Shown piece after piece: positions 5,348 through 16,931 of a stretch of 64,000 bases of DNA. Each line of letters begins with the position of its first letter. Position 1 is the stretch's first letter. A program made the translations under genes and the position numbers. Below the pieces are notes generated by a model that saw nothing but the letters and a program-made list of their open reading frames with translations, had not been told where the DNA came from and did no database searches. The stretch lies in assembly GCA_043825735.1 (NCBI GenBank), contig JBDRRP010000155.1, positions 1 to 64,000 of the forward strand, given 5' to 3'. This DNA comes from Pseudomonadota bacterium (GTDB taxonomy: Bacteria > Desulfobacterota > Desulfobacteria > Desulfobacterales > JBDRRP01).

Positions 5348-5606
5348 TCACCACGAGAACACGGAGGGCACGGAGGACACCTAAATTTTATAGCCATTGC
5401 CATAAATTCGTTCCGTTTGCGCGACAACTCATAGTGGGCATCGAAATCGGTATCGGTATCGACTCTGGAAAACATCGATTTCGATCCCGATAGCGATCCC
5501 GACCCCGATACGATCTTGGGAATAAAGCGGAACATTATTCTGGCAAGCGCTCTAAAACGTCGTCTCTTGATTTCCTCTCCGTGATCTCCGTGTACTCCGT
5601 GGTTGA
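5348..5606. mobile_element. Three-layer nested non-autonomous inverted-repeat element
   Basis: Outer (CACGGAG)n arms at 5348-5376 and 5575-5606. Middle imperfect TIRs at 5389-5418 and 5524-5554. Inner ATCG..-hexamer arms at 5440-5514. Confidence 0.7.
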
Positions 5607-7252: not shown

Positions 7253-7331
7253 AACCACGAAGTTCACGAAGGACACGAAGATTTTCAAACTCACTTGTTT
7301 TTAGGTTTTTCTTCGTGAACTTCGTGGTGAA
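7253..7331. repeat. (CACGAAG)n inverted-repeat element
   Basis: AACCACGAAGTTCACGAAGGACACGAAG ... CTTCGTGAACTTCGTGGTG. The left arm is near-identical to 16708-16735. Confidence 0.85.
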
Positions 7332-7351: not shown

Positions 7352-8239
7352 TCAATCATCGCCGGACCAGCAGTAGGTGATGATCTTCTGGGCGATGCGG
7401 GCGGCGGTGTATTCGCTGACTTGGTTTCCGGGGATCTTGACCAATTCGACGATGTCGGCGGCAACGACGCGGGTGTGCCGGCCCAGGAGTCGGATCAGGG
7501 CCACCAGCTGGCGGTAGTCCATCCCGCCGGGTTCCGGCGTGCCGGTCCCCGGCATGACGGCCGGATCCAGGCCGTCCACGTCAATGCTGAGGTAGACCGT
7601 TTCCGGCAGCCGGTCCCTGACCCGTTCGAGCCAGCGGCCGTCATGGCCGGCCATCTCATGGGCGAAAACCGGGGCAATGGCGTTGGCCGCGAGATAGTCG
7701 CGTTCTTCGGAAGCCACGGACCGGATACCGATGGGGAGGATGGCGAGCCCCTGATCGGCCGACGCCCGTCGCATCACGCAGGCGTGGTTGTACCGGCTGC
7801 CGTTCCAGCGCTCTCTGAGATCCAGGTGGGCGTCTACCTGAACAACGGCCATCTCCGGAAATCGACGGGCGGCGGCGGCAATGGGACCGATGGACACCGC
7901 GTGGTCACCGCCCAGCGACAGGAGGCGTTTTCCGGCCGAGAGCACCGCGTCGGCGGCCGCTGCCATCTCAGCGGCCGCCTCGCGGGGCGAACCGTCGGGA
8001 TAGCGCGGGGCCTGGGTAAATATGGCCTGATCCACCCAGGGGGTCAGTGTTTGGTCATCCAGGCACTCCATCTGCCCCGATGCCTCCAGAAGGGCCAGCC
8101 CCCCTTCGCGGCATCCCGTTCCATAGCTGACGGCCCCCTCATAGCATAACGGCGCCACCACGATGCGGGCGGCCTCAAAGGCAATCGAGGCGACTTCGTC
8201 TCCCCCGAAACGGGGATATGCAGGTGCGGCGGAGGTCAT
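7352..8239 (-). CDS. speB: Agmatinase (ureohydrolase family)
   Basis: GGDHAVS, DAHLD and SIDVDGLDP..MPGTGTPEPGG motifs. Lies downstream of an arginine decarboxylase. Confidence 0.88.
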   Translation of the reverse strand: MTSAAPAYPRFGGDEVASIAFEAARIVVAPLCYEGAVSYGTGCREGGLALLEASGQMECLDDQTLTPWVDQAIFTQAPRYPDGSPREAAAEMAAAADAVLSAGKRLLSLGGDHAVSIGPIAAAARRFPEMAVVQVDAHLDLRERWNGSRYNHACVMRRASADQGLAILPIGIRSVASEERDYLAANAIAPVFAHEMAGHDGRWLERVRDRLPETVYLSIDVDGLDPAVMPGTGTPEPGGMDYRQLVALIRLLGRHTRVVAADIVELVKIPGNQVSEYTAARIAQKIITYCWSGDD

Positions 8240-8253
8240 GGCAGGATCGGCTA

Positions 8254-8485
8254 CTCATATGCCGGCTTCGCCGGCGTCGATACGCTTCGCTGTCAAATGG
8301 TCGCTACGCGACCGTCATTTGTCGGCTCCGCCGACGTCAACTGCTCGCCGCGCTCGCTGTCATATGGTCGCTGCGCTGTCAATGACGGTCGCGTAGCGGC
8401 CAAGTGACGCCCCGAAGGGGCAATTGACGTGCCGCAGGCACAATTGACGTTCGCAAAGCGAACAACTGACGCTCTTGCGGGGAGC
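8254..8485. repeat. Bipolar array of short hairpins, mostly GNA triloops, joined by GTCAnnT / AAnTGAC heptamers
   Basis: Read directly from sequence; see findings. Confidence 0.8.
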
Positions 8486-8511
8486 AAAAGATGCCGTTTA
8501 TGGATGGACAC
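8486..8511 (-). repeat. End of GTGTCC MITE-like family fused to a stop codon
   Basis: AAAAGATGCCGTTTATGGATGGACAC is similar to 11936-11961 and 37072-37096. Confidence 0.7.
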
Positions 8512-9056
8512 TATTTAACAAAAATCGCCGCTGCGAGCACGGTGGTCCACTTGCCGCCTTCGGCACCCAGACTCGCCTGGCTTGTGTGCTGACTTTTGAC
8601 GATTTTACCGGACATGCTGTAGATCTCTCTGCGCTCGTCGTAGTCCTTGTCCGGGTCGAACTCGATGCCCAGGGTATTGGCCAGCATGGAGGCGGCCAGA
8701 TCCTCTGCGTATTCCCCGGCTTCCTTTTCAGTCTGACCGAACCCGTGATGCTCCGAAAGATAGCCGTACATGCCGCTTTCTGCTGGCAGTGCAAGACCGA
8801 TGCTGGACACCAGACGCCGGCCGGGTTCCTGACTCTGCTCTCTGGCCAGGACACAATGGGTAATTTCGCCCGGCTCCAAACGCTCCAGCCCAGAGTCGAC
8901 TTCAATAATGCGGCAATGGGGCGGAAAAATCGATGAGACCTGCACGAGGTTTAGATGTGCAATACCGGCATCCCGCAACGCGTTTTCAAATGAGGCCAGT
9001 TTTTCCTTGGCGACACCGGCGCCCTTGGTGAAAAACATATAACGAGGTACGTACAT
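8511..9056 (-). CDS. pdaD: Pyruvoyl-dependent arginine decarboxylase
   Basis: [25 protein letters not shown], with the SS self-cleavage site. Also [17 protein letters not shown]. Confidence 0.88.
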
Positions 9057-9330: not shown

Positions 9331-10767
9331 TCAATCGCCGGCCACCCAACGCTCCAGCGTCGGCGGCACCGCCACACAGGCGGAAACGGCGTCCAGGGGG
9401 CAATGGGCACTGAGTTCGACCCCTTCCTGAATGACGGAAACCGGCCGGTCGGAAGACACGACAACGATCATGAGTCCCGGGCGGGCCGCGGTAAACCGCA
9501 GGGCCGAGTTGTACCGCGCCCCCCGGGCGCGGTCTTCACCGGCAATGGCGCGGCCGTCCAGAAGACAGGCAAAGGCATGGAGTTTTACATCGGCCCCGAT
9601 ATGCAGCGCCCCGTCCACCTTGGCCAGGGACTGCGCCAGCGAAAGATTCTCGGGCGCTCTGAGGTCCAGCGGCGCCTCCAGGCGCTGTCCACTGATGGAT
9701 ACCGGCCGTCGGTTCAGATCAATAACTAGGGTGCACCCGTATTTGCCGCTTTCCGCCGTGTGGACGATGTCGTTGATGGTCTTGAACAAGGCATCGCGCA
9801 CCTCCGGATCGAGGCGGGATTCCAGCAGTATTTCCTCCACCTGCACAAGCTTGGCACGATGGGTTGTGGACAGAAACCGGCCATTGGCGAAACTGCAGAT
9901 TTTCTCCCCGTTGAGGCGCAGCAATCCGTAGCCTCCGCGGAAATCGGCGACGATATTGAATCGCGGCGGCGCCCCCCGGGCGATCCCAACGATGGCGCGT
10001 CCATCCGACACCAGTATCCTGGGCGAAAACTCGACGGAAGTGAGGAGTTTGCGCACATGCTTGAAATTGTCCAGCAGGGGCCGTTCGGCTTCAGGAAACC
10101 GGGCTGCGAACACGACACTTTGCATGGCACTCGGTTCCACGAACATGAGTTTCCCTCTGGCCCAGGCCCCCTCCTCCAGTGTCCTGGAAATCCCCAGCAC
10201 CGCGTCGAGGATGGGATAAATCCTAAGCCGGGTATCCATCCCCAGGGCCTGTCCCATTTCGTCGATGATGAAATCACGGACGGCATGGGTCGCATACTCC
10301 CTGAGAAAGGCTCCTGAAATGCCGGTGTAAAGCTCCTTGGCGTTGGCCACATCGTGGCTGAGCCGATACACCGCGTGCTCCAGCCACCGCCCGGTCGGCC
10401 CCACGGCGCACATATCGGGATGGTGTTCGGTGAACCACATCTGGTAGTACATGGAGGCCGAACGTCCCCCGAAAGAGATGCGCCCTGCCAGCCCCAGGTC
10501 CTTCTCGGTCAGGATCTGATCGAACCGCCGCAGCCGGGCCATGGCCACCGGGGGGAGGCGCCAATCGCCGCTGTCCACAAAGAGTTCCCGGAACCGCGGC
10601 TGGTGTCCATCCAGCAAGCCCTGAGGGTCGCACACCCGCAAAGGGTCATCGGCGGCGACCGCATAGATCATGGCCACCCGACTGGTCCCGGAAAAAAGGC
10701 TCAAGCCTTCCCGCAGGCCGTCCAGGATGTCGTAAATGCACCGGCAGTGGAAATCGTTGACTGGCAT
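9331..10767 (-). CDS. DisA_N/diadenylate-cyclase-like domain protein with a long N-terminal region
   Basis: C-terminal GCTLVI...LAKVDGALHI...RGARYNSA...IVVVSSD matches the DAC-fold pattern. RHR is replaced by RYN. Confidence 0.75.
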   Translation of the reverse strand: MPVNDFHCRCIYDILDGLREGLSLFSGTSRVAMIYAVAADDPLRVCDPQGLLDGHQPRFRELFVDSGDWRLPPVAMARLRRFDQILTEKDLGLAGRISFGGRSASMYYQMWFTEHHPDMCAVGPTGRWLEHAVYRLSHDVANAKELYTGISGAFLREYATHAVRDFIIDEMGQALGMDTRLRIYPILDAVLGISRTLEEGAWARGKLMFVEPSAMQSVVFAARFPEAERPLLDNFKHVRKLLTSVEFSPRILVSDGRAIVGIARGAPPRFNIVADFRGGYGLLRLNGEKICSFANGRFLSTTHRAKLVQVEEILLESRLDPEVRDALFKTINDIVHTAESGKYGCTLVIDLNRRPVSISGQRLEAPLDLRAPENLSLAQSLAKVDGALHIGADVKLHAFACLLDGRAIAGEDRARGARYNSALRFTAARPGLMIVVVSSDRPVSVIQEGVELSAHCPLDAVSACVAVPPTLERWVAGD

Positions 10768-15570: not shown

Positions 15571-15900
15571 TTGATAAAACCGTAAAAAGTGATTTTGAAC
15601 CACAGAGACCGCAGAGAACATATCGAATAACAAATTCCGCTTGTTTATGAATCGCCAGTTCTACGTCAAAGGCCAATGTCCCCAATGAGATTTTCATCAC
15701 CACGGAGTCACTGAGGGCACGGAGAAACTCAAAATCAGTTGATTTTGAATATCAAATCTCCGTGTCCTCCGTGACTCCGTGGTTCAACATCACTGTGGGA
15801 AGAGCCCCACTGTCGATTTGCTGCATAAGCGAATTACTAATGAGCATCTCTGCGCTCTCTGCGTCCTCTGTGGTGATTTGAGACTTTTTACATTGCCATA
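15571..15900. mobile_element. Nested composite element with three clear layers and one weak layer
   Basis: TIRs 15571-15590 / 15883-15900. CAGAG arms 15598-15616 / 15848-15874. Weak IR 15632-15659 / 15809-15835. CACGGAG arms 15698-15724 / 15758-15784. Confidence 0.75.
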
Positions 15901-15905
15901 GTCTG

Positions 15906-16688
15906 CTACTCGCCCCGATAGACCGGTTTTCGTTTTTCCCGGAAGGCGGCCAGACCTTCCAGCCGGTCCTTCGTGGGAATGGTGACCCAGTAGGCGTTGG
16001 ACTCGATGGCCATGCCCGTTTGCAGATCGGTTTCCATGCCATAGTTGATGGCATACTTGGCCTGCTCGATGGCGACGGGGCCGGTTTCACAAATCATGGA
16101 CGCCATCTCCTGACAGGCCGGCAGCAGATCCGCCGGCGGGCAGACCCGGTTCACCAGTCCGATCGCCAGTGCCTCTGCGGCGTCCACGCGGCGACCGGTG
16201 AAAATCAGTTCCTTGGCCTTTCCCTTACCCACAAGACGCGGCAGCCGTTGGGTTCCGCCGGCACCCGGGATGATGGCCAGCCGGGTCTCGGTCAACCCCA
16301 TGGTGGCGGTATCCGCCGCCAGCCGGATGTCTGCGGCCAGGGCCAGTTCGGTGCCCCCGCCCAAGGCAACGCCGTTGACCGCTGCGATGACCGGCTTGGG
16401 CAGGTTTTCGATGTCGGCAAACAGGCTGCGAATGGTATAGATAAACGTTTTGACCTGAACCGGGCTCAGCGTGGCCCGTTCCTTGAGATCCGCTCCGGCG
16501 CAAAACGCCCTGTCACCGGCCCCGGTGACAATGACGACCCGGATGTTCGGATCGAACCGAAGCGCGCTCACCTGATCCCGCAGTGCTTGGAGCATTTCAA
16601 AATTAAGACTGTTCATGATCTGCGGCCGGTTCAGGGTGAGCGTCGCCACACCCCCCTGGTCCTCCCGGATCAACACCGCTTCTGTCAT
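15906..16688 (-). CDS. Enoyl-CoA hydratase (methylglutaconyl-CoA hydratase-like)
   Basis: AFCAGADLKER, ALGGGTELALA.D, LTETRLAIIPGAGGTQRLPR. Confidence 0.9.
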   Translation of the reverse strand: MTEAVLIREDQGGVATLTLNRPQIMNSLNFEMLQALRDQVSALRFDPNIRVVIVTGAGDRAFCAGADLKERATLSPVQVKTFIYTIRSLFADIENLPKPVIAAVNGVALGGGTELALAADIRLAADTATMGLTETRLAIIPGAGGTQRLPRLVGKGKAKELIFTGRRVDAAEALAIGLVNRVCPPADLLPACQEMASMICETGPVAIEQAKYAINYGMETDLQTGMAIESNAYWVTIPTKDRLEGLAAFREKRKPVYRGE

Positions 16689-16707
16689 AGTCGCCTCCTT
16701 AGGAGAT

Positions 16708-16931
16708 CACCACGAAGTTCACGAAGGACACGAAGGTTTGATAAACTCAAATTTGATGAATCCGCAAAAAGAGATTTTGAACCACAGAGAGCGCAGAGGA
16801 CCGCAGAGAATATACTGAATAATTATTAAGTTATCTCTGCGCTCGCTGCGTCCTCTGTGGTGATTTCAGACTTTTTACGTGACTGCCAAATTTGTTATGG
16901 TGTTCTTCGTGCACTTCGTGAACTTCGTGGT
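16708..16931. mobile_element. Three-layer nested composite element
   Basis: CACGAAG arms 16708-16735 / 16905-16931. MITE-like ends 16753-16771 / 16869-16890, bracketed by AAATTT. CAGAG arms 16780-16808 / 16835-16861. Confidence 0.78.

Follow-up and report, generated by a model that had tools for sequence, protein, structure and literature searches.

Mirror-image rows of GNA mini-hairpins between pdaD and speB: very probably the gene-less form of a repeat-armed four-helix-bundle cassette

The intergenic region that separates pdaD from speB in a genome of the Desulfobacterales (GenBank assembly GCA_043825735.1) is filled by a dense row of short GC-rich hairpins, which raises the question of what kind of element this is and of whether it belongs to the polyamine genes on either side. 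The array lies at positions 8254-8485 of the window, by which we mean the whole stretch of 64,000 nucleotides analysed (contig JBDRRP010000155.1, positions 1 to 64,000, forward strand). The results described below indicate that it is very probably a gene-less, non-autonomous (empty) form of a cassette that elsewhere comprises a left arm, a gene for a four-helix-bundle protein resembling the 23S rRNA intervening-sequence protein (23S-IVP) and Avd, and a right arm; most likely, the window copy descends from a gene-bearing cassette by loss of its centre.

Sequence and linker map agree with the first-pass annotation, which had described a two-way hairpin array whose linkers change orientation midway, and resolve eleven units. 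The left arm (8254..8381) holds six of these and, read outwards on the minus strand, has the form TGAC-[stem-GNA-stem]-NNN. Read on the plus strand, it opens with the linker CTCATAT (8254-8260) and continues with the units GCCGGC-TTC-GCCGGC (8261-8275, then linker GTCGATA), GC-TTC-GC (8284-8290, then GTCAAAT), GGTCGC-TAC-GCGACC (8299-8313, then GTCATTT), GTCGGC-TCC-GCCGAC (8321-8335, then GTCAACT), GCTCGC-CGC-GCTCGC (8343-8357, then GTCATAT) and GC-TGC-GC (8370-8376). The arms diverge from a centre of sequence GTCA-A-TGAC (8378..8386), the slot that is occupied by the four-helix-bundle gene in complete cassettes, and this centre recurs in the copies at C127:10770 and C90:10020. The right arm (8383..8485, plus strand), with AAnTGAC linkers, is made of the four hairpin units GGTCGC-GTA-GCGGCC (8387-8401), GCCCC-GAA-GGGGC (8409-8421), GTGCC-GCA-GGCAC (8429-8441) and GTTCGC-AAA-GCGAAC (8449-8463), followed by a degenerate fifth (8471-8485); its loops are GTA, GAA, GCA and AAA, and one T·G wobble is present. 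On the minus strand the left-arm loops are five C-GNA-G and one GCG, the latter within the tandem-G·A unit at 8343-8357, which was missing from the first-pass list, all units in that list being correct. The array thus has eight exact C-GNA-G hairpins, of which the left arm contributes five, on the minus strand, and the right arm three, on the plus strand, against a mean of 0.86 and a maximum of 4 in 2000 dinucleotide shuffles, so that the two-way layout with its flip is real; likewise, GTCA/TGAC occurs ten times against a shuffle mean of 1.8 and a maximum of 7. The fold z-scores of the array are -5.3 as DNA and -4.7 as RNA. An assembly error is argued against by the agreement of two overlapping contigs across the array, which is identical in both; they come from a sequencing run that is possibly the source of the window. 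This is no independent check, and none of the pieces covers the stretch from end to end.

Is the array tied to the polyamine genes? A scan of the genome yielded 11 clusters of array units including the window copy (the bounds of two were widened after inspection), nine of them bipolar and two single-arm, and they adjoin unrelated genes which, from their translations, we take to be rplM, ilvN-ilvC, hemL, thiolases, coaE and others. Among 40 relatives pdaD is present in 14, with speB adjacent in 11, and in none of the 14 was an array seen by eye within 330 bases after pdaD. The proposal that the element is multicopy and independent of polyamine genes is therefore borne out. Its position between two co-oriented polyamine genes might have spoken for a cis-regulatory RNA of the pdaD-speB operon, but the ten other clusters beside unrelated genes, the fact that no array was seen at the orthologous site in the 14 relatives and the lack of any Rfam match refute this as the origin of the array, leaving it barely credible; a side effect of the array on speB expression is possible.

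Searched with one unit pattern, one of the 40 relatives gave matches; genome G001, of the same genus, gave none and has a different spacer after pdaD, so that the boundary of the insertion cannot be fixed. The same pattern found 98 matching stretches in the species-genome collection, many from two genomes and some of the single matches being due to chance; the 80 listed include members of Rhodothermales, Kiritimatiellae, Victivallales, Rikenellaceae, Cloacimonadota and Desulfobacterales. Fifty-five of the 98 are outward-facing and empty, three enclose a gene, one faces inward, 34 have one arm and five none, and the polarity of bipolar elements is therefore 58 outward to one inward across several phyla. 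In genome G041, 33 matches to the centre pattern have a conserved core, which suggests that an empty element is copied as a whole. The three matches in viral contigs, all of a single unit within the start of one phage gene, were taken as chance. No RNA sequencing run is listed as containing the genome, and three runs in which its share is small offered only short pieces and no usable empty site. In one bipolar copy of the window's genome (L022:1245-1595, G000 C3) the centre is taken up by some 80 bases of unrelated sequence; this copy directly follows a small open reading frame (ORF) that to the eye resembles a RelE-type gene.

The first-pass annotation had proposed a search for further copies and for the genes they enclose, and it is this search that relates the array to a protein. 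In genome G003 both arms enclose an ORF of 129 residues, co-directional with the flanking operon, which scores 95 bits with TIGR02436 (cut-off 24) and whose structural model has four helices with a predicted local distance difference test score (pLDDT) of 95. The model matches, in order, 2GSC (root-mean-square deviation, rmsd, 1.0), 2RLD and Avd (4DWL; template-modelling score, TM, 0.78, rmsd 2.2), and profile score and four-helix fold together place the cassette gene in TIGR02436/PF05635. Arms surround an ORF of this family also at L137, L155 and L296, and all three gene-bearing elements among the 98 stretches hold the same four-helix-bundle family, one of them with a protein that is identical to L011. 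G003 and G045 have an intact cognate gene flanked by arms, and G043 has a broken one. Among the best 80 of 266 metagenome relatives, the flanking repeats grade from plain runs of GTCATTN into arms with interleaved hairpins. At L113:2290-4030 (G003 C7), a left and a right arm bracket a host metabolic gene of 445 residues, with other short repeat types nested inside; this may be either a captured gene or two lone arms.

The association is with one protein clade. TGAC arms, defined by at least two linkers on each side, occur at 61 of 79 close-clade loci and at none of 59 other PF05635 loci, although the 79 were chosen by likeness to one protein (profile), often lie at one genomic site and are not independent. 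Since they are selected by likeness and related, what these counts establish is an association and not binding. In a quick tree of 95 proteins, which omits half of the close set together with every duplicate and short row, the 30 TGAC rows all fall inside one group of 39 rows with a support of 86. Four non-TGAC rows inside this group (L053, L095, L105 and L107) form one subclade with TTAC linkers. The TTAC subclade shares residue changes near the conserved EGxG motif, which makes it a natural control of specificity, albeit a single event. A further observation concerns the window's genome (G000), where the three intact four-helix-bundle genes (L024, L025 and L026) each have their own inverted 7-8-mer arms, two sharing a short hairpin-like insert.

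Inverted arms as such are not restricted to this clade: 45 of the 59 other PF05635 loci have inverted short arms of different sequence, compared with 6.2 for mismatched flanks. This speaks for the notion that the arms are a by-product of a host process which makes inverted repeat runs around small acquired genes, GNA and tandem-GA units accumulating because they promote their own slippage and survive repair, with no protein reading them. Such arms are also found at GxxExxY genes of the window's genome, array-rich genomes can be without the cognate gene, and the ends of the arrays are ragged, all of which would be expected from it. However, the repeat type tracks the protein clade, the polarity is fixed at 58 to 1, and the empty copies within a genome have a conserved centre in common, and for these reasons we consider it improbable.

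The next question is whether the hairpins are formed in DNA or in RNA. Units were parsed between TGAC tags irrespective of their loop letters. Of the 86 units parsed in the window's genome, 77 have C-GNA-G on the TGAC strand and none has C-TNC-G there, the masked remainder of the genome giving C-GNA-G in 10 of 228; tandem mismatches on the TGAC strand are GA/AG in 12 cases and TC/CT in none. Tandem G·A pairs are stable in DNA as well as in RNA. Around cassette genes, the arm upstream has GNA on the antisense strand (35 of 49 units, with six tandem GA/AG) and the arm downstream has it on the sense strand (115 of 153 units, with 14 tandem GA/AG). According to the accessible part of a review, only GNA among 64 loops gives a stable, nuclease-resistant DNA mini-hairpin; r(GCGAAAGC) has a melting temperature of 39 °C, and in RNA the equivalent of the GAAA form is much less stable (PMC13037366). 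Since the favoured strands of the two arms cannot both be present in a single transcript, DNA is the simpler reading, and to judge from these sequence patterns the arms probably fold at the DNA level, as a single strand. The suggestion that selection acts on a single-stranded DNA fold is thus supported, with the qualification that an excess of hairpins on the sense strand was also observed. A comparison of G·T with A·C pairs leans to the GNA strand in the window's genome by 5 to 0, on few cases, and is mixed in the cassette loci.

The corresponding RNA explanation is that of a cassette working as RNA, whose two arms would pair through GUCA/UGAC on either side of the gene in the manner of an rRNA intervening sequence, would be excised from the transcript of the operon or recognised by the protein, and might spread by means of a reverse transcriptase as do diversity-generating retroelements (DGR). 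In its favour, members of the family are found within 23S rRNA intervening sequences and are similar to Avd, a protein that DGR retrohoming requires (PMC10053308, accessible part); hairpins are 2.6-fold commoner with GNA on the sense strand; the related motif Gut-1 was published as RNA (PMC2864571, accessible part); DGR targets have a hairpin with a GRNA or GRA loop (PMC3240598 and PMC4372165, accessible parts); and the genome has seven reverse-transcriptase matches. Yet the two arms are not collinear complements, and in upstream arms the strand with GNA and tandem GA is the antisense one, which would leave the transcript with UNC loops and UC/CU mismatches. Moreover, no array adjoins any of the seven reverse-transcriptase loci of the genome, one of which has a single-unit match. 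Taken together, a cassette acting as RNA appears rather unlikely.

The order of the units and the ends of the arrays bear on how copies arise. In the window's genome, 59 of the 86 neighbouring unit pairs are distinct, with an excess at lags 3 and 4, which points to shuffling with block duplication; neighbours with the same stem were never observed (0 of 86, expected 6.0), nor were they at lag 2 (0 of 67, expected 5.0). By eye, the ends were ragged, and neither a fixed end nor a target duplication could be discerned, both at the G041 loci with traceable ends (29 loci examined, seven without a mapped centre) and in the 11 arrays of the genome itself. The first-pass annotation had named an HUH enzyme, such as the REP-associated tyrosine transposase (RAYT), as a possible partner, REP standing for repetitive extragenic palindromic sequence. 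In a fuller version, the arrays would be REP-like elements with a TGAC guide, moved by a RAYT-type nuclease encoded elsewhere, the four-helix-bundle gene being a passenger. Y1 transposase genes are indeed present in all six array-bearing genomes checked, and REPs of the CGTC type are similarly without a dedicated transposase (PMC3733652, accessible part). Against this, TGAC arms were found at none of the 36 Y1 loci of these genomes, several of which are incomplete; the tag is not GTAG or GTGG; the CGTC families have stems of 8-9 bp, loops of 4-5 nt and negligible head-to-tail dimers (PMC3733652, accessible part); and a hairpin-reading nuclease does not explain why the arms grade into hairpin-free heptamer runs. 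With a four-helix bundle as the enclosed gene, the HUH partnership was not upheld, and we regard it as quite improbable.

The explanation we prefer is that of a selfish cassette, to which as a whole we give somewhat better than even credence. The array sits between co-transcribed host genes, and each arm is a row of TGAC tags, in this variant with GNA mini-hairpins between the tags. The anatomy, the dispersal, the strand rule and the tie to one protein clade are established by the counts above, and the remainder is proposed. When transcription or a replication fork exposes a strand carrying GNA loops, that strand would fold, and the mirror layout would, as we propose, offer one folded arm whichever strand is exposed. 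The stiff and nuclease-resistant hairpins may hold the TGAC tags unpaired and spaced for a ring-shaped four-helix-bundle protein. Copies would then reach new intergenic sites by a copy-in route through host or unlinked enzymes, copy-in being preferred to cut-and-paste because neither fixed ends nor target duplication were seen, and the arms would later grow, shrink and shuffle through slippage or conversion at the linkers. As to the assistance of the protein in this spread, we consider the chances about even.

Several results weigh against this explanation. The cognate-clade gene was not found in G041, G042 or G044, nor in the window's genome (G000), which is 100% complete and where the best candidates, three full PF05635 genes whose repeats are of other types, reach 27-32% identity to the clade. 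No exact pre-insertion site was found. The hairpin excess on the sense strand, counted over 300 bases per side at 49 distinct loci, amounts to 117 downstream and 45 upstream (2.6-fold), the linkers in the same loci numbering 337 and 311, respectively. This excess ties the fold to transcription and is what one would expect if the non-template strand folds while it is displaced by transcription, or if RNA has a role. In addition, 24 GNA units were parsed on the sense strand upstream of the gene; a stricter count gives 13 such hairpins, ten of which come from one locus with a right-type arm upstream. The avoidance of same-stem neighbours does not hold as a general rule, since G041 has 5 of 80 against an expected 4.2. 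The mutual dependence of the clade loci and the quick tree, in which the TGAC group's own support is 86, likewise count on this side.

A likeness to the cyanobacterial short tandemly repeated repetitive (STRR) heptamers was considered and was not confirmed by the literature search. At the gathering cut-offs no Rfam family covers the window array, and a search by E-value gave only hairpin-type matches far below the cut-offs, the best being to a model of a plant microRNA, with 30 bits where 99 are needed. The first-pass view that the array is not a CRISPR is borne out; CRISPRs combine constant repeats of 24-48 bp with unique spacers, whereas here only 7 nt are constant and the same variable units are met at different loci. 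The array is likewise outside REP and bacterial interspersed mosaic elements (BIME). Its layout has a published precedent in Gut-1 (Rfam RF01706), the closest published relative, in which rows of short variable-stem hairpins are joined by a 7-nt linker (PMC2864571). The rows of its alignment have mostly C-UNC-G loops, the complement of the C-GNA-G found here (PMC2864571, supplement 5), and its linker is GUGAAAU instead of GTCAnnT / AnnTGAC. The accessible text describes Gut-1 as a noncoding RNA of human gut sequences and makes no mention of a mirror arm or of an enclosed gene (PMC2864571). Six of the seven matches of the Gut-1 model in the genome fall on arrays, none of them on the window copy; the best has 31.5 bits, the cut-off being 50.

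REP, BIME and REP doublet (REPIN) elements with RAYT are alike in being intergenic and multicopy, in combining a tetranucleotide with a hairpin, in their inverted arrangement and in their mosaic clusters (PMC6006769 and PMC3733652, accessible parts). Their guide 5' of the hairpin is GTAG or GTGG and not TGAC, and the array differs by its 3-nt GNA loops, its head-to-tail units with variable stems, the absence of a flanked Y1 transposase and the four-helix bundle enclosed by its complete form. Compared with CGTC REP families 1-4, with stems of 8-9 bp, loops of 4-5 nt and a mostly head-to-head arrangement (PMC3733652, accessible part), its stems are of 2-7 bp, its loops mostly of 3 nt and its units head-to-tail. 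In its manner of working the array resembles the hairpin rows of Gut-1 or of the BIME type, without being a member of either. Bacterial heptamer repeats such as TAACTGA (PMC4679880) and GGGAATC (PMC4692102) form intergenic 7-nt runs inside operons, the latter often as inverted pairs, and resemble the hairpin-free GTCATTN runs that bracket members of the array's protein clade. In contrast to both, the array places hairpins between the heptamers; the terms 'helix bundle' and 'intervening' are absent from the accessible texts of these two papers. The 23S rRNA intervening-sequence protein, Xcc0516 and DGR Avd share family and fold with the cassette protein, but the cassette site is an mRNA operon and not rRNA, the window copy has no gene, and at the complete cassettes no linked reverse transcriptase was seen within flanks of 1.5 kb, no search having been aimed at DGR parts; the 2GSC protein has five subunits, to judge from the title of its paper as cited in PMC10053308. 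The GC-rich hairpins of DGR targets, with GRNA or GRA loops, are a parallel to the arms (PMC3240598 and PMC4372165, accessible parts). Transposable elements of the miniature inverted-repeat type (MITEs) are likewise short, non-coding, of inverted symmetry and derived from a gene-bearing element; they differ by fixed terminal repeats and target duplication, which were not seen in the arrays, and the length and unit order of the arrays vary between copies.

In the window, the array is flanked upstream in the operon by pdaD, for a pyruvoyl-dependent arginine decarboxylase (8511..9056, minus strand; TIGR00286 above cut-off), and downstream by speB, for agmatinase (7352..8239, minus strand; TIGR01230 above cut-off). 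The right arm abuts the lone end of a separate MITE-like repeat of about 145 bp (TAGTGTCCATCC..., 8485..8513, minus strand), whose TAG is the stop codon of pdaD; we treat this end as a neighbour, its membership in the hairpin array not being shown. Genome-wide, the family has 108 end matches, ten of them paired and seven of those 144-146 bp long, and an end lies 7-17 bases from three of the 11 arrays. Further repeats, of the 9-mer type CACGAAG/CACGGAG, form inverted arms at window positions 7256-7326, 5360-5601, 13904 and 15781-16929, and the two patterns have 240 and 161 matches in the genome. Its GxxExxY genes are bracketed by identical or related 9-mer arms and so constitute a second kind of repeat-armed small gene. 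Upstream of pdaD, an ORF of 478 residues (9331-10767, minus strand) weakly matches NF053872, an anti-phage family (67 bits, where the cut-off is 630).

More tentatively, and with considerable doubt, repeat-armed four-helix-bundle cassettes may be seen as an undescribed class of mobile element, in which an Avd-like ring would read short clade-specific tags on single strands of DNA, the arms being built or rebuilt one unit at a time, from the centre outwards, by a polymerase or reverse transcriptase that is not linked to them. The GNA arm of each strand stands at its 3' end, as in telomeres, and no two copies have the same unit order. We found no published description of an armed cassette in a literature search that reached few subscription papers. 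If this broader reading were true, Gut-1, the bacterial heptamer repeats and an orphan protein family would be parts of one system. The widespread and functionally uncharacterised four-helix-bundle family gains a candidate ligand, with the TGAC and TTAC subclades as a control of specificity. Gut-1, classed as RNA in Rfam, may represent a structure of DNA whose wrong strand was read. The arrays provide a natural case, spanning several phyla, of GNA mini-hairpins and tandem G·A pairs that have apparently been selected together; if their mobility were shown, they would represent a route of spread with no transposase in the element.
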